Shown here piece by piece: positions 1-6,780 of a stretch of 49,918 bases of DNA. This DNA is from Patescibacteria group bacterium (GTDB taxonomy: Bacteria; Patescibacteriota; WWE3; UBA101185; UBA10185). The stretch lies in NCBI GenBank assembly GCA_032117075.1, contig JAUMAA010000003.1, positions 107,574 through 157,491 of the forward strand, given 5' to 3'. Numbering within the stretch: the stretch's first letter is position 1; each line of letters opens with the position of its first letter. The notes beneath the pieces are model-generated. The model was not told the origin of the DNA. It saw nothing but the letters and a program-made list of their open reading frames with translations, and did not search any database. The position numbers and the translations under genes are program-made.

Positions 1-309
1 AAGTTTTTCTATTACAATCAAATATTTTAAAAAAGATCTTAAACAAACTAAAAAAGATTTCTGGGTTGCAAATTTATAATTTTCATTAAACTTACCCTTA
101 GCTGGTTTTCTATTTAAATAAATTCTATATTTTTTTAAATTATCAGAATTAATATCGCTTAAGGTAACTCGATCTCTTTTTAAAAGCTTAACTAAAAAAT
201 TTCTGAAGTCAGCTAAGTAAAAGTCATACATTTTAATGGTATTGGGAGAAAGGTTTCTATCTATTTCACAATGTTCAAGAAATTTCACAATATAGTTTGT
301 TAAGTCCAT
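1..309 (-). CDS. Xer-family tyrosine recombinase, N-terminal part (runs off the window edge)
   Basis: Not in the ORF track. Hand translation from ATG 309: MDLTNYIVKFLEHCEIDRNLSPNTIKMYDFYLADFRNFL...NLKKYRIYLNR...ATQKSFLVCLRSFLKYL, which matches the XerC/XerD core-binding domain pattern (LSxNTxxxY, LRSFxKYL). An extended -10 (TGcTATTAT) lies 7 nt before the ATG. XerC versus XerD cannot be decided. Confidence 0.88.
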   Translation of the reverse strand, partial: MDLTNYIVKFLEHCEIDRNLSPNTIKMYDFYLADFRNFLVKLLKRDRVTLSDINSDNLKKYRIYLNRKPAKGKFNENYKFATQKSFLVCLRSFLKYLIVIEKL

Positions 310-588
310 ATACATAATAATAGCACCTCATAAAATGACCTGTGAGCGATTATAAATTTAAAGTTGATTAGTTTATCATTTATAAAAAAATTTAATTAAC
401 GAACGAATATGCAAGAAATAATTTTAAAATTTTAAAAACAGTTAAAAAAAGATAAAAGAAGAGAAAAGAACAAAAAATAGAGTAGAAAGGGAAATTAAAA
501 GATAAAAGTAAAAATAAATTCCAGATAAATAAAAATAAATAGAAAAGAGAAAAATAAATAAAAATAAATAAAATTCGAAATATACAAA

Positions 589-616
589 ATGTCGTATAAT
601 GTATGTTTAACGACAT
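589..616. other. Putative dif-like site-specific recombination site
   Basis: ATGTCGTATAA-TGTATG-TTTAACGACAT: 11-6-11 layout with arms inverted at 9/11 positions. The spacer matches E. coli dif TGTATA at 5/6. It lies upstream of the xer gene. Confidence 0.75.
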
Positions 617-900
617 ATAAGGTATAGGAAATAAAAAGAGCCTAAATCTCTTGGAAGAGTGGTGAGGTTAATTCCGCAAAATTCCCTAAGCAAGTTAATT
701 AGCAATTAATAATAAAAAATAAAAACACTAAATTGAAATTAAATCGTATTTAATTCAGATTTAATTCTATTTTTATTCATTTTAATCACTAAATGTGCAG
801 GAAATGTTTTCCACATTCGGTAATTAAAAAAATTATGACAAACCTCCAATTTAAAATTATGACAAATATCCTGGCACTCTTCTCCACTTCATGATAACTT

Positions 901-908
901 CCCTGCCC
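901..908 (-). other. KOPS-like octamer GGGCAGGG oriented toward the dif-like site
   Basis: Plus-strand CCCTGCCC in AT-rich intergenic DNA matches GGGNAGGG on the minus strand. Confidence 0.35.
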
Positions 909-931
909 TTTCTTTGGGTTTTGTAGGTGTT

Positions 932-1717
932 TTAAGGCTTAAATGCAATCAAAACTAATAAAAAGAATGAGCTAATTACTACATATTGAATAATTAATTT
1001 CTTATTTAATGAGTTATCTACATAATTTCTTGCATAACTTACCATCGACATATACACGGAGGTAATGAATGTAGCTCTAAAGAAGGATTCAGCAGAAATA
1101 AAACTAGTAGCTACTGAAGCAATCACAGGAAGATAGACCATTTGAAAAATCAAAAGAATATACTCCCTATTACTTACACTATCCCTTTTTGAGATCAGAT
1201 AAGAATGTAAATATACATAACTGGAGGTGAGTAAATAAATAAAGATAAATAAACTATGGATGTAAAACTTAAAATTAAATTTGTAAATGACTGTAATAAA
1301 AGGTATGGTTAGTACTATGAGTAATATTTGTAACCATACCTGACCGACCCTAAATAGAGGGAGCGAGGTATCCTCTACTTTCTCAGCAATAATTAAATTA
1401 TTAATAAGTAAACTCAAATAAAATAAAGCACCTGAAAAAAACATTAGTAGATATTTGAATAAAAATGAAAGATTTGGAAAAAAAATTAAACCCATGATAG
1501 TTGAAGAAAGTATTACTAATGGAAGAAATGAGATGATTATCAGGTCTCTAAACTTAAATCCAGGATACAAAGCTACCAAGTTTATTATAAAGACAACAAA
1601 AAGTGCTATTCCAAGAAACAAATATTTATCTAATTTTACGAAGTCAAAAAGTAAAATGCCAAATTGATAAAATATAAATGCAAATAAAAATTTAGTTCTT
1701 CTAGAAATACTACTCAT
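932..1717 (-). CDS. Multi-pass membrane protein of unknown function
   Basis: 261-aa ORF with about 8 hydrophobic segments; its start overlaps the ruvC stop. Confidence 0.75.
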   Translation of the reverse strand: MSSISRRTKFLFAFIFYQFGILLFDFVKLDKYLFLGIALFVVFIINLVALYPGFKFRDLIIISFLPLVILSSTIMGLIFFPNLSFLFKYLLMFFSGALFYLSLLINNLIIAEKVEDTSLPLFRVGQVWLQILLIVLTIPFITVIYKFNFKFYIHSLFIFIYLLTSSYVYLHSYLISKRDSVSNREYILLIFQMVYLPVIASVATSFISAESFFRATFITSVYMSMVSYARNYVDNSLNKKLIIQYVVISSFFLLVLIAFKP

Positions 1718-2193
1718 TTTATTAACTCTTTATGTATGTGACATAAAGAAATAGCTACCGCATCACTTGCATCATCAGGTTTAATTATCTTTTCAAGATT
1801 AAAATAGTTTTTTACTGCTTCCTGAACCTCTTTTTTAGTCGACCTACCATAACCTGTTACAACTAGTTTAGCTTGCAAAGCAGTATACTCAAAAATATCT
1901 AGTTTATGTTTTGCAGCTGCCATTAAAAGCACCCCTCTTGCCTGCCCTACTGCAATTGCTGTTTTGATATTGGTATTAAAAAATAACTTCTCAATAACCA
2001 AACACTGAGGATTTGTTTCAGCAATTTTATCGTCTATTAGTTTGTGTAGAATTAAAAGTCTATCTGCAATAGAAAACTCTGGAGATGTTTCAAAGGTGGA
2101 TGCCTCTAGTATAACTGGTTTTTCCCCGTCATTATAATCAAGTAAGCAAAAACCAGTTGTTGCAGTTCCAGGATCAATTCCTAAGATTTTCAT
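1714..2193 (-). CDS. ruvC: Holliday junction resolvase RuvC
   Basis: ILGIDPG, IEKLFF, GQARGV, YTALQAK..VTGYG and DDASDAVAI motifs; next to yebC. Confidence 0.97.
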   Translation of the reverse strand: MKILGIDPGTATTGFCLLDYNDGEKPVILEASTFETSPEFSIADRLLILHKLIDDKIAETNPQCLVIEKLFFNTNIKTAIAVGQARGVLLMAAAKHKLDIFEYTALQAKLVVTGYGRSTKKEVQEAVKNYFNLEKIIKPDDASDAVAISLCHIHKELIK

Positions 2194-2216
2194 ATTTAAA
2201 ATATTAACACGAATAA

Positions 2217-2765
2217 CTACTCTTCCCCACCTTCATCTTCATAATTTGTGTAGAATTCTATTACATCATCGCTTTCATCCAGAAAATTTATTATATTTTC
2301 AACCATTTCTATGTTTCCTGAACTGAGCTTTACTTTAAAAATTGGGTTATTGAGGTCGTTTCCGAAAATGTAGGAAGCTGATCCAACAGTTCCCATTGAA
2401 CCACCATTTTTAGAAAAAATTGTTCTCAACTCAGCTACAGTTCTATTTTTATTATCTGTAACACATTCAATTAAAAATGCCCCTCCATCCGGACCAAATG
2501 CTTCATAATTTACCTCTTCGTAGCTTACACCCTCAAGCTCACCGGTTCCCTTTTTAATTGCTCGTTCGATGTTTTCTTTTGGCATTCTTGCTTCTTTAGC
2601 TTTTTCAATTAATAGTCTCAATTCTGGGTTGGCAACAGGGTCTCCCCCACCCCTTTTCGAGGAAACACTTATTAATTTGGCTAACTTTGTAAAAGACTGG
2701 GATTTTTTAAAATCCAATGCTTCTTTTTTTCTTCTGATATTTTTCCATTTAGAATGACCTGCCAT
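2217..2765 (-). CDS. yebC: YebC/PmpR family protein (short form)
   Basis: [37 protein letters not shown] and DDV..FYTN motifs; 182 aa, lacking the internal domain. Confidence 0.95.
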
Positions 2766-2846
2766 AATGGCAAAAATACCAAATTTTTAGAAAAAAATCT
2801 AGACAAAAGTATTGACTACCTCTAACAATTTGATAAATTTATGTTT

Positions 2847-3587
2847 ATGAGTTTAACTTTAAGTGAACTGCAAAAACTATCCATTAAAGCAGCATTAAAT
2901 AAAAATTGGAACGAAGCCATAGCTTTGAACCTTCAGATCCTTTCACAAGATGAGTCAAATCTTGATGCCAGACTAAGACTTGGGATTTCATACTTACAGC
3001 TTCAGGATTTTAAAAAAGCTAAAAAATACTACTCAGAAGTTTTAGAAATAGATCCAATTAATAAAATTGCTCTCGAAAAAATGAAATTTGTTAAGGAAAA
3101 GAAGATACAAGAATTTGTCGTTCCCAATACCGATAGATTACTTAAAGAACCTGGAAACTCAATTGAACTTACGGTTGAGATACTTACCAAAGGAATTACT
3201 TGCGACAAATTTAAATTTGGAGATAACCTTATTCTCAAAATTAAAGAAAAAACAGTTTCGGTCCATCGAGATGATGAAAAGCAATCTTTAGTTAACTATC
3301 TTTCAGATGCAATTGCTAAAGCTATATTGAAATCTATTTCCAAAAAAGGAGATGTTGATATTAAGTTTATTGGTGGAAAAGATAAAAAAATCAAAATACT
3401 AATTACTTCATCAATCTCAGTTTTCCCTTCCGAGAAACAGGATATTAGACCTTATGTTAAGTCATCAGATGATATGGATGCTCCAGAAATGGGTGAAATT
3501 ATTACAGATACAGATGAAAAAATAAAAGAAACAGAAGAAACAGAAACTCCTGAGGAGGAAGAATCCGGTTCTGAAAAAGAAGAGTAA
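2847..3587 (+). CDS. Tetratricopeptide-repeat protein with acidic C-terminal tail
   Basis: N-terminal TPR-like helices (ARLRLGISY..AKKYYSEVLEIDP) and an E-rich tail. ATG 2847 is preferred to 2841 because it lies 7 nt after TTGACT-16-TAAATT. Confidence 0.8.
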   Translation: MSLTLSELQKLSIKAALNKNWNEAIALNLQILSQDESNLDARLRLGISYLQLQDFKKAKKYYSEVLEIDPINKIALEKMKFVKEKKIQEFVVPNTDRLLKEPGNSIELTVEILTKGITCDKFKFGDNLILKIKEKTVSVHRDDEKQSLVNYLSDAIAKAILKSISKKGDVDIKFIGGKDKKIKILITSSISVFPSEKQDIRPYVKSSDDMDAPEMGEIITDTDEKIKETEETETPEEEESGSEKEE

Positions 3588-3648: not shown

Positions 3649-4356
3649 CTATAAAAGATCTTCGTCTGAAAAATCTACTCTTTCTGTTTTTTTAGGAGTT
3701 TCAATTTGAATAGTTTCATTTAAAGCTGGTTTATTATCTTTTGTTTCAGTCTTCATTTGAGGAGCTCTTCTTATTTCAATAGGTTTAATTTTCTTAGATG
3801 GCAAGTTCACCCCTGACTGAGTTGCTAATTTATCAATGGCAGCAAAATCGGATCCGTTATCTGTCTCTGGGATAACTACCAACACTTCATCCCCTTGCTT
3901 CAAGTTCCTAAACTCGACAGCAGATTTAGAAAGTTGATATGATTTATTATTTTCTAGTAAAACAAAATACCTACCATCCTTTTTAGATAAGGTTCCCTTT
4001 ACTTTTTTTCGTGGAATCTTATTGAAAATAACATACTTATCTACATTTTCTTCTTGGTATCTCTTTAATTCATCACCTACAATTAATAATGACTTTGCTG
4101 CATAGTTTTTAGGTACCTCATATTTAACACCAGATTGAGTTACAAGGTACTCACCATCAAAAACACCTAACTCACCAGGCATGTCTCTTGAAGGAGAGTA
4201 CTGAGCTCTTTGTGCCTCATTAATGATGTTTTCAACACTGTCTAATCTTTTCCTAGCTACTCTTATATGCTCCAAAATGGTTTCTAGAGTTTTCTTTGGT
4301 AAATTCAAACTCTCTAATTTAATTTGTATATTTTTATCAATTGGTTTATTATTCAT
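3649..4356 (-). CDS. Conserved hypothetical protein
   Basis: 235-aa ORF. The GVFDG..YEVPKNYAAKSLLIVGD segment resembles a CPR-conserved uncharacterised family (recollection, not searched). Confidence 0.7.
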   Translation of the reverse strand: MNNKPIDKNIQIKLESLNLPKKTLETILEHIRVARKRLDSVENIINEAQRAQYSPSRDMPGELGVFDGEYLVTQSGVKYEVPKNYAAKSLLIVGDELKRYQEENVDKYVIFNKIPRKKVKGTLSKKDGRYFVLLENNKSYQLSKSAVEFRNLKQGDEVLVVIPETDNGSDFAAIDKLATQSGVNLPSKKIKPIEIRRAPQMKTETKDNKPALNETIQIETPKKTERVDFSDEDLL

Positions 4357-4368
4357 ACATTAATTATA

Positions 4369-6780
4369 CTATTTTTTCTCTTTCAGGTCATTTAATACTT
4401 TTTTAAAATCAGTAGATATCCACTTCTCCACTCTTGAGTCAACAACAACTCTATCAGATCCGTATGTATTTCTTGAAAATTCTATAATCTTTTCTCTGTT
4501 TCCTGTTTTTTGATACCTTAACCAAGGCTTAATAATTTCAGCAGTAAATGGTTTAGTTGAGGTACCATCTACAATCATTTTAGTAATAATATTAAAATTT
4601 GGTAAATTTTGAATATCAACTTCATCATAATAAGGTGCGAATACTTCTCTCATAACCGAGGCATCCCTTGACCCTAAGGAATAAGTGACTATTGTTCCTA
4701 CATTTCCAATTACAGCAGCCTTCATAGTATCTGATAACTGTTCAATAAATTGATGAGTTAAATACAAACCTAAACCATATTTTCTAGACTCAGAAAGAAT
4801 GGATTGAAATGTATCAGTTGTAAAATTCTGAAACTCGTCAATGTATAGATAGAAAGGAGATCGTTCTTCATTAGGTATATTTGCCCTCTTTAGAACAGTT
4901 GACTGAATTTTGGAAACAATTAATGAACCGAAAAGATTCTTCACATCATCCCCTAACATTCCTTTAGATAAATTGAATAGGAATATTTTTTTAGAACTCA
5001 TAATGTCACTAAAATTTATTGTAGAATTTCTTTGACACAAAATGTTTCTTATTATTTGAATTGTCTCAAAAGGACCTATTTTATTCTGAATTGGAGAGAT
5101 ACTTTCTGTTTTAAGTTTATTGTTTGATTTAAACTCTGCAAATTCTTTATCAAAAAACTTCCTTAAAACTGGGTCTTTTAATTGTGAAACAATAAATTTT
5201 CTATAGTCGTCATCCTCTAAAACTCTCTTTATTCCAAGAACAGTAGTTCCTTCAACTGACATAATAGCTTTCACAGTATTTCTTAAAATATATTCAAGTC
5301 TAGGTCCCCAAGAATCTGCGAAAATAGATTTAAAAGCATTTACAATCTCTGCGGCAGCCCTATCGATTGACTCCCCTTCTTCGAGCTGCATAATATTAAT
5401 TCCAATGGGTCTATCAAAATCAGATGGATCAACTAGCACTACATCTTTAATTCTTTCTTCTGGAATGTAATCTAGAATATCTCTAATTAATTCTCCGTGA
5501 GGGTCAATCACACCGACTCCATTACCTTTTAAAATATCTTGAATTATCATATTTAAAAATAAAGATGATTTTCCTGTTCCGGTTTTTCCAATCATATACA
5601 TGTGCCTTAACCTGTCTGCACCCTCCTTGATTCCAAATTCTATTGATTTATTTCTGTAAGTAGCCTTACCAATATAGATGCAGTTATCTTTAGGTAAATC
5701 ATCAGGGATCTCGTTTTGTCTTATTGGGGCCCAATCAATATTAGGAATATCAACTGATGAACTCGGTAAATGGTAAATAGAGGCCAACTCCTCTGTGTTT
5801 AGAATATAAGTAGAATCAGTGTCCAACCTTCTATTTTGAAAGTCACTTAATAATTTTTTAGAATCTAACTCTTTTACTTCTACAAATGAATTTAAATTTG
5901 TTCTAGAAAACTGACTAAAAGTGGCAATGCAACTTCTATAATTCTGGTCAACATCAATAGGATTATTTGAAAAAGATATTATTCTAATAAAGGAATCAAA
6001 TCCTGACCTTGTTAGTTTATTTTCAATTCCAGAAACTGTAACTTCTTCAGACTGAGAAAGCGCTGAAATAACTTTTGCAGCTTTGGTATCTTTTTCTTGT
6101 ACTGCATTTGGATTTAAAATTCTACTTAAAATAAATCCTAAAATTTTTAATATAAATTTAATGAATCTAAAAAGAATAAATTCCTCTTTTTTATCGGAAA
6201 ATTCCTTTTTCTTTATTTTTGAAATAGCTTCATAACCATCCATTTGCCAGTTATCAGGTCTAGGTTTTGTCAAAATTTGAATTGCCAATCCTTCATCACC
6301 TTTAACTTGTGACAGGGAGGATGTTATTGCAGAAAGAGGATCTACCTCAAAATTTCTAAAAGTTAAAATAGGCAGGTAATCTTTTTTAAGTAAAGATATT
6401 CCGGAACCTTTTACTAATTGGTAGTTTGAAATCTCTTCAGAATAATCTGGAATTCTGGTAATTTGAGCCATTGGGTATTGAGCATAAATTTGAGATTCCA
6501 TATGAGATGCTAAAATCTCTGGACAAACAACAATAAATTTTATCTTTTCGTTTTTAACGAATATTTCAAATGAAAAATGATTAGCCTCGCCGTCTTCTTT
6601 AATTATTCCATGAATAACAGAAAATAATTGTTCAGCAGCAAGTGGGTCTGACTGAATAGAAACCTTATCGGAACCTGCTGAAGGTCTTACAACTTTTACC
6701 TCTAAAACAACTTTATTTCCAATATCATGCACAGTGTTTTTTGGTTTTAAAAATTGATCCAAAATTTTTATTAAATTCAT
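4369..6780 (-). CDS. VirD4/TraG-like (DUF87/HerA-FtsK superfamily) P-loop ATPase
   Basis: Walker A GKTGTGKS, VIDPHGEL, Walker B LYIDEFQNF and SESRKYGL..LTHQ; one hydrophobic segment in the N-terminal half; SD AAGGAG upstream. Confidence 0.88.
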   Translation of the reverse strand: MNLIKILDQFLKPKNTVHDIGNKVVLEVKVVRPSAGSDKVSIQSDPLAAEQLFSVIHGIIKEDGEANHFSFEIFVKNEKIKFIVVCPEILASHMESQIYAQYPMAQITRIPDYSEEISNYQLVKGSGISLLKKDYLPILTFRNFEVDPLSAITSSLSQVKGDEGLAIQILTKPRPDNWQMDGYEAISKIKKKEFSDKKEEFILFRFIKFILKILGFILSRILNPNAVQEKDTKAAKVISALSQSEEVTVSGIENKLTRSGFDSFIRIISFSNNPIDVDQNYRSCIATFSQFSRTNLNSFVEVKELDSKKLLSDFQNRRLDTDSTYILNTEELASIYHLPSSSVDIPNIDWAPIRQNEIPDDLPKDNCIYIGKATYRNKSIEFGIKEGADRLRHMYMIGKTGTGKSSLFLNMIIQDILKGNGVGVIDPHGELIRDILDYIPEERIKDVVLVDPSDFDRPIGINIMQLEEGESIDRAAAEIVNAFKSIFADSWGPRLEYILRNTVKAIMSVEGTTVLGIKRVLEDDDYRKFIVSQLKDPVLRKFFDKEFAEFKSNNKLKTESISPIQNKIGPFETIQIIRNILCQRNSTINFSDIMSSKKIFLFNLSKGMLGDDVKNLFGSLIVSKIQSTVLKRANIPNEERSPFYLYIDEFQNFTTDTFQSILSESRKYGLGLYLTHQFIEQLSDTMKAAVIGNVGTIVTYSLGSRDASVMREVFAPYYDEVDIQNLPNFNIITKMIVDGTSTKPFTAEIIKPWLRYQKTGNREKIIEFSRNTYGSDRVVVDSRVEKWISTDFKKVLNDLKEKK

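Follow-up and report, generated by a model that had tools for sequence, protein, structure and literature searches.

A dif-like site linked to a Xer recombinase gene in the WWE3 lineage: a candidate chromosome dimer-resolution module in bacteria of the candidate phyla radiation

We analysed a stretch of 49,918 nucleotides, hereafter the window, from a Patescibacteria group bacterium of the WWE3 lineage (contig JAUMAA010000003.1; G000:C3:107574-157491 in our numbering, G000 being the bacterium's own genome). At positions 589-616, on the + strand, lies a 28-bp dif-like core site, and the window opens on the minus strand with the 5' part (positions 1-315, the first 105 codons) of a gene for a Xer-type recombinase of 316 amino acids (aa), xer-1, which as a whole spans G000:C3:106938-107888. 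The site has an 11-6-11 arrangement, with a left arm ATGTCGTATAA, a centre TGTATG and a right arm TTTAACGACAT. The left arm matches the reverse complement of the right arm in 9 of its 11 bases: the arms share their outer 7 bp (ACGTCGT / ACGACGT), and the inner 4 differ (ATAA vs TAAA, read on the other strand). The first-pass annotation of this DNA had described this geometry, inverted arms included, together with a Xer-type gene some 280 bp away and transcribed away from the site. Both descriptions hold, the start of the site lying 274 bp upstream of the xer-1 start codon.

Judged by its domains and catalytic residues, Xer-1 is a predicted tyrosine recombinase of the XerC/XerD/XerA type and of standard length. 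It combines the Pfam domain Phage_integrase (140 bits) with a SAM-like N-domain, and aligns over its full length to E. coli XerD (structure 1a0p, expectation value (E) 1.5e-39) with the six catalytic residues R, K, HxxR, H and Y present. It also matches structures 4a8e and 5hxy and, weakly, the XerH structure 5jjv (E 1.2e-15). Its NCBIfam scores are all under the curated cut-offs (given in brackets), at 239 bits for XerC (335), 231 for XerD (330), 210.6 for XerA (220) and 132 for XerS (267).

The site is strongly conserved, and linked to this gene. Counting the own genome, 40 of 41 related genomes have a Xer-1 ortholog (47-67% identity). Of 30 loci anchored on Xer-1 (56-67% identical outside the own genome), 28 have a copy of the site, differing at 0-7 positions, at a distance of 231-1308 bp upstream of xer-1, which bears out the expectation that the motif would recur upstream of orthologous xer genes. 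All 28 copies have one orientation relative to xer-1, and conservation ends at the edges of the site, with unrelated flanks. Of the two loci lacking a copy, one (L025) has only 249 bp of contig upstream and the other (L027, in genome G035) has the site 3.9 kb upstream. The A/G-rich spacer between xer-1 and the site (316-588) is not conserved in sequence, and its length in relatives runs from 159 to 1308 bp, with the single case of 3.9 kb. From the anchored loci we obtained the lineage consensus ACGTCGTATAA-TGTATG-TTTAACGACGT, in which the right arm is almost invariant, the left arm is more variable and the centre is conserved as much as the arms. The variants seen in relatives retain the 11-6-11 layout, and two genomes (G029 and G040) have perfect 11-bp inverted-repeat arms around the asymmetric 6-bp centre.

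The site is also single. The 28-mer has one match in the window (at most 3 mismatches) and, in the uniqueness check suggested by the first-pass annotation, only one in the whole assembly of the own genome (693 kb, 20 contigs; at most 6 substitutions). Exactly one whole-genome match with at most 3 mismatches was found in 21 of the 41 relatives and two in none, and the reversed control gave 0; in the other 20 relatives the site is more diverged or was not found at this threshold. A different route led to the same place: among 8,368 imperfect palindromes in the own genome, eight are kept in both of the relatives assembled as one contig (G017 and G041), of which seven look like tRNA or rRNA by eye and the eighth is the site.

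Beyond this set, a degenerate-core scan of a species-level genome collection returned at least 80 loci, mostly labelled candidate division WWE3, Patescibacteria group or Saccharibacteria, with a few under other labels. This agrees with the earlier proposal of a dif-like site tied to a neighbouring Xer gene in a lineage of the candidate phyla radiation (CPR). Of the 80 loci listed, 71 include a homolog of Xer-1, with one relative orientation throughout, and in 69 the site is 159-1246 bp upstream of the gene. Two pattern matches without a left arm (L112 and L169) are chance hits, and the remaining loci without Xer-1 are cut by locus or contig ends. Further away, we looked at 25 xer-1 loci in other classes of the phylum. 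A related site (xxGTCG-N5-N6-N5-CGACxx) precedes the gene by 219-732 bp in 8 of them; upstream of xer-1 in the other 17 we saw four weak palindromes, with no shared motif and none convincing.

A second line of evidence comes from short polar words. The own genome encodes an FtsK (G000:C1:53509-55782) with an FtsK_alpha domain, an FtsK_SpoIIIE motor and an FtsK_gamma domain (PF09397, 82 bits). In an unbiased scan of all octamers of G017, GTAGGGGA ranked third by strand asymmetry. Of its 40 copies, 15 of 16 at 26-192 kb are on the + strand and 23 of 24 at 195-821 kb on the - strand; this strand switch brackets the site of G017, the other breakpoint is at dnaA, and the word, read 5' to 3', runs toward the site from either side. 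The 13 copies at 195-309 kb all aim at the site, against GC skew and gene orientation. In E. coli and Vibrio, the word of the FtsK-orienting polar sequences (KOPS) is GGGNAGGG (PMC5357621). The cumulative maximum of this word falls at 192,551 in G017 (site at 192,799, 0.25 kb away) and at 452,158 in G041 (site at 456,301, 4.1 kb away), and in the latter genome RTAGGGGA peaks at 456,160. Copies of GGGNAGGG pointing toward and away from the site number 9:0 on the own contig, where 41 other arrangements of its letters, pooled as controls, point toward it in 80% of cases. The counts are 37:8 in G017 and 39:7 in G041 within 150 kb (pooled controls 69% in both), 7:0 in G015 and 5:0 in G023 on one flank each (77% and 73%), and, in the zone from the site to the skew peak, 14:5 in G017 (58%) and 28:7 in G041 (65%). 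In these two zones TAGGGGA points toward the site by 26:7 and 15:3, takes third place among 14,526 heptamers, and none of the others among the 15 listed is G-rich; of the C-/A-rich words examined there, CTCAAAA and CAAAACA obey ordinary lagging-strand bias. We read these patterns as those of putative G-rich guiding words selected to converge on the site, like KOPS at dif. AT skew was considered as a cause of the polarity switch and discarded, being steadily negative in G017 from about 180 to 360 kb, with no clean peak at the site.

Weak conservation is seen on the xer side of the site only (window ~560-588), with A at -9 (83%) and at -7 (88%), and a GGG at -27 to -25 is weakly kept (46-63%), as measured by per-column information in 81 unique related contexts. 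These bases may belong to an accessory element, or form a final guiding word beside the site.

On the strength of its conservation, single copy, linkage to xer-1 and polarity, rather than of its palindrome, the 28-mer is probably a dif-type chromosome dimer-resolution site, a reading to which we give a probability of about 85%. A number of observations weigh against it or qualify it, and they concern its place on the chromosome, the specificity of the polar words, the genomes compared, its geometry and a second recombinase gene. The first-pass annotation had suggested checking whether the site sits at the cumulative GC-skew switch. On the own contig this is so: the cumulative maximum is at 106-108 kb and the site at 108,162, with a mean skew of +0.135 in the 10 kb to its left and of -0.134 in the 10 kb to its right. 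It does not extend to the two one-contig relatives. In G017 (897,158 bp; site at 192.8 kb, dnaA at 819 kb) the skew forms a plateau at ~240-420 kb with its maximum at 351 kb, 158 kb or 17.6% of the genome from the site; in G041 (878,109 bp, labelled a complete genome; site at 456.3 kb, dnaA at 682 kb) the cumulative peak is at ~307-327 kb, ~130-150 kb away, and the site sits where a low-skew plateau (~240-460 kb) gives way to an arm of strongly negative skew (461-640 kb). Both sites are thus 15-18% of the genome from the skew peak, and ~90-110 degrees from dnaA; Kono et al., 2011 (PMC3025954) count dif and the skew shift point as agreeing up to a threshold of 5% of the genome. The site lies 14 kb before the plateau start in G015 (site 683.9 kb, dnaA 455 kb) and at the plateau edge in G023 (site 690.4 kb, dnaA 55 kb). 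The site and dnaA are 226-333 kb apart in six assemblies (G017, G041, G042, G043, G015 and G044), and their separation amounts to 22-30% of length in the four largest contigs (the first four of these), a figure that for G017, G042 and G043 assumes that the contig closes into a circle.

Since skew tracks gene orientation, we separated the effects of replication and of gene orientation, taking the average of plus- and minus-strand gene skew as the replication-linked component (genes being long open reading frames (ORFs), not curated, and G041 being sampled at 91%, in 40 pieces of 20 kb). In G017 this component is ~+0.06 up to 200 kb, ~+0.02 at 200-350 kb and negative from there on; the G041 values are above zero up to 263 kb, ~-0.015 at 263-483 kb and ~-0.058 beyond. 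In both genomes the site marks a step in the component, and the sign change comes near the antipode of the origin. From the site to that antipode runs a low-skew zone of 150-190 kb (~193-350 kb in G017, ~263-456 kb in G041), in which the component is about one third of its value in the arms and gene orientation is mixed, with the site marking one edge.

The polar words are less specific than the counts above may suggest. The pooled control arrangements also lean site-ward, by 58-80%, and the polarity is therefore in part common to G-rich words at large. A switch within 5 kb of the site is seen for 5 of 42 arrangements in G017 and 3 of 42 in G041, and for about a dozen in each within ~15 kb, and breakpoints of frequent heptamers are mildly enriched at the site (158 vs 112 expected, and 109 vs 96). 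The genomes compared are related and share synteny, and are not independent of one another. As to geometry, the window contains 29 stretches of the 11-6-11 type with at least 9 of 11 complementary positions, vs 19.6 +/- 3.8 in 20 shuffles, and the arrangement by itself is no better than chance. One could then suspect that the palindrome and its likeness to loxP are both due to chance, given how common such palindromes are in this AT-rich window and that 14 of its positions reach 20 of 34 identities with lox. This suspicion is refuted, and we leave it next to no probability: the 28-mer is near-identical across genera whose Xer-1 proteins are 56-67% identical and whose flanks are unconserved, there is one copy per genome, and its orientation to xer-1 is fixed. 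A regulatory role is harder to dismiss and still improbable in our view. The site occupies a conserved intergenic slot in a syntenic row of ruvC, a membrane gene and xer-1, it contains a TATAAT hexamer, and in both one-contig relatives it lies away from the GC-skew switch, all of which would suit an operator (for Xer-1 autoregulation, for example) or a target of inversion or integration. An operator would hardly range from 159 bp to 3.9 kb from its gene, a hairpin would not have a centre as conserved as its arms, and a local regulator would not cause G-rich words to converge over hundreds of kilobases. The absence of a second copy in all 41 genomes speaks against inversion or a flanked insertion. 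No promoter or terminator call overlaps 589-616 in a scan of window positions 300-950, and a minus-strand T-run after the hairpin is not kept in relatives, which speaks against a promoter or terminator; Rfam gave 0 matches over window positions 1-3000 (E up to 1) and ARAGORN no tRNA near the site, which speaks against an RNA gene.

The second recombinase gene bears on how many proteins would act at the site. Xer-2 (G000:C2:4904-5767, outside the window) has 288 aa and the same two-domain build as Xer-1, to which it is 28% identical over 214 residues. Its best NCBIfam models are XerD (145 bits), XerA (140) and XerC (135), under the XerC and XerD equivalog cut-offs. Of the 41 relatives, 36 have an ortholog (43-55% identity); the search gave none in G002, G009, G020, G037 and G038 (75-94% complete). 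With a second conserved Xer-like gene, a single recombinase is unsupported by gene count, and the one-protein Xer/dif pair of the first-pass annotation lacks that support. In a sample of 81 genomes of the phylum, Xer-1 orthologs occur in 77 and Xer-2 orthologs in 21, and among the xer-1 loci outside WWE3 the genomes of all 8 with the related site have Xer-2, vs 2 of 17 without it. This co-occurrence may stem from shared ancestry, and it also fits a two-protein system. The xer-2 gene lies beside a tRNA gene in 12 of 12 loci examined, with two tRNA-Met genes in the own locus. A search of those 12 loci for shared 16-mers returned only the two tRNA-Met genes and coding sequence, with no shared palindrome near Xer-2, and no other conserved palindromic target for it was found either near the gene or genome-wide.

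Xer-1 and Xer-2 might work like XerC and XerD on the same dif, one on each arm, with the arms told apart by the inner ATAA vs TAAA. Xer-2 is, like a partner, a conserved single-copy gene with the Xer domain pair; it accompanies the site type, it has no target of its own that we could find, and the inner-arm asymmetry is kept within the site family. Set against this are several features. In classical dif the outer halves of the arms differ and set the specificity for XerC or XerD, in agreement with the E. coli dif given in the first-pass annotation; in the 28-mer the two arms have the same outer 7 bp, a shared specificity that is not expected of two proteins just 28% identical. The genomes with perfectly symmetric arms, G029 and G040, keep Xer-2 all the same. 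In two loci (L227 and L228) the same outer G-to-T change is found in both arms (ACGTCT...AGACGT). Conversely, G002 and G009 have the site and no detected Xer-2, a weak point given that they are 92-94% complete. Three genomes of family f29 (G061, G087 and G110; 98-99% complete) have Xer-2 and neither a Xer-1 match (E up to 1e-30) nor ACGTCG-N16-CGACGT (at most 1 mismatch); their dimer-resolution system, if any, is a different one. Finally, only xer-1 is linked to the site, and linkage of a recombinase gene to its dif has been put forward as a possible hallmark of single-recombinase systems (PMC5357621). We hold the two-protein arrangement to be rather unlikely. The symmetric outer arms, the linkage to xer-1, the symmetric sites of G029 and G040 and the paired change of L227 and L228 make us lean toward Xer-1 filling both arms without Xer-2.

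If Xer-1 indeed acts alone, the protein, encoded 274 bp away, would bind both 11-bp arms, and two occupied sites would synapse as a tetramer and exchange strands across the asymmetric centre TGTATG. FtsK would be steered to the site by the G-rich polar words (GGGNAGGG and (G)TAGGGGA) aimed at it from either side, and would probably also trigger the reaction, so that at cell division chromosome dimers, and possibly catenanes, would be resolved at this single site. Recombination at the site, the solitary action of Xer-1 and the reading of polar words by FtsK are alike things that we infer from sequence. More tentatively, these elements can be joined with the chromosomal data into a broader picture that we regard, as a whole, as doubtful: in WWE3-class CPR the dif/KOPS-like point would be uncoupled from the skew switch, with Xer-1 alone on a compact site and Xer-2 employed elsewhere. 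Such a dif would sit ~90-110 degrees from dnaA and 130-160 kb from the skew peak, at the edge of the low-skew zone, and the guiding words within that zone would point at dif against the local base skew.

We then compared the module with known systems. With the classical XerC/XerD-dif of E. coli and Vibrio it shares the 28-bp 11-6-11 site, two Xer paralogs, the FtsK gamma domain and GGGNAGGG converging on the site. The TGTATG centre is one base off that of E. coli dif, given as TGTATA in the first-pass annotation. It differs in that the arms share their outer half and differ inside, the reverse of classical dif, that one xer gene is linked to the site, that Xer-1 and Xer-2 score below the equivalog cut-offs, and that the site is 15-18% of the genome off the skew peak in two relatives. 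In the XerS/difSL system of streptococci and lactococci, gene and site also form one module, with imperfect inverted arms and FtsK dependence (PMC5357621); XerS, however, has 356 aa and difSL 31 bp with an 11-bp centre (PMC5357621), against 316 aa and 28 bp with a 6-bp centre here, Xer-1 scores far under the XerS cut-off, and there is a second Xer-like gene. XerH/difH of Helicobacter and Campylobacter is likewise a single-recombinase, FtsK-dependent system with the site near the gene and arms of unequal strength (PMC5357621). XerH is longer (354-362 aa) and 26% identical to XerCD (PMC5357621), its site is unrelated in sequence to the 28-mer, and Xer-1 matches its structure far less well than that of XerD. 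Archaeal XerA/dif has the same 28-bp, 11-6-11 site and forms a xerA/dif module in some species (PMC5357621); the protein is close as well, Xer-1 falling just under the XerA cut-off and matching 4a8e and 5hxy. Archaeal dif lies 122-144 degrees from oriC rather than at 180, with short polar words skewed toward it (PMC5357621), and an off-antipode position is seen here too. XerA acts without FtsK, whereas here we deal with a bacterium with FtsK gamma and G-rich octamers of KOPS type. The XerL/dif system of Legionellales is another lineage-specific single-recombinase system, which went unrecognised owing to its difference from XerCD-dif (PMC9765430). We liken it to ours by description: XerL/dif was found through a mobile element mimicking dif and tested genetically (PMC9765430), and here we have sequence only and saw no mimic.

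Among Xer-related recombinases, Smyshlyaev et al. mention a subgroup, 'Cand', that comes from candidate phyla, in passages that describe no site for it (PMC8138268), and text searches of the literature on dif/Xer in CPR, Patescibacteria or Saccharibacteria gave no published dif. The module is very probably a recombinase-linked dif with an enzyme of standard length, XerC/D/A-like by its profile scores, and a 28-bp site, that is, a known kind of system hitherto undescribed for CPR.

The likeness to loxP, from which a Cre-like recombinase had been suggested, concerns the site and not the enzyme. The reported figures are correct when set against the P1 record (AF234172): lox and window positions 586-619 share 23 of 34 bases, with an identical run of 14 at 592-605. 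This score is reached at only 1 of 99,770 window positions (both strands), and the match takes in the inner arm together with the centre, in register with the centre of symmetry. Inverted arms and an asymmetric centre are common to both. P1 lox, in contrast, has 13-bp repeats in a 34-bp site, and conservation here stops at 28 bp. The 15 PDB matches of Xer-1 (E up to 0.001) include no Cre chain, and the protein is XerC/D/A-like. The likeness is thus real as a sequence match, shows no sign of Cre kinship, and would serve as a lead for cross-reaction only.

If the dif reading is true, this would be the first defined dif site, with candidate FtsK-guiding words, for a CPR/Patescibacteria lineage, and it would offer a landmark to check and orient assemblies of uncultured genomes. 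A dif far from the skew-defined terminus would be an oddity in a bacterium with FtsK. The conserved Xer-2 poses the question of a one- or two-protein system on a site with symmetric outer arms, and should Xer-1 work alone, the 28-bp site and the 316-aa enzyme would make a compact, self-contained pair of recombinase and target, and possibly a tool.

The site and xer-1 end a row of minus-strand genes, which runs from yebC through ruvC and a 261-aa ORF to the site and then xer-1. The site is separated from the 3' end of the next gene by a non-coding, unconserved stretch (617-931) with no RNA-family, promoter or terminator call. The 261-aa ORF (932-1717) looks by eye like a multi-pass membrane protein, matches no Pfam family and is syntenic with the site; upstream of it in the row come ruvC (1714-2193), for a Holliday-junction resolvase (Pfam RuvC, 128 bits), and yebC (2217-2765), with TACO1/YebC domains. 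Homologs of the 261-aa ORF are found in 67 of 80 site loci of 8 kb and in 21 of 30 small loci, and homologs of RuvC in 53 of the 80, a recurrence that gives the site its conserved intergenic slot. The row is one of recombination-related genes, in which Holliday-junction and dimer-resolution genes travel together. Further along, on the same strand, the window holds a 235-aa ORF without a Pfam match (3649-4356) and a gene for an 803-aa protein (4369-6780) with TrwB/VirD4-type coupling-protein and HerA-like ATPase domains, a combination that suggests a DNA-transfer ATPase of the type IV secretion or conjugation-like kind.

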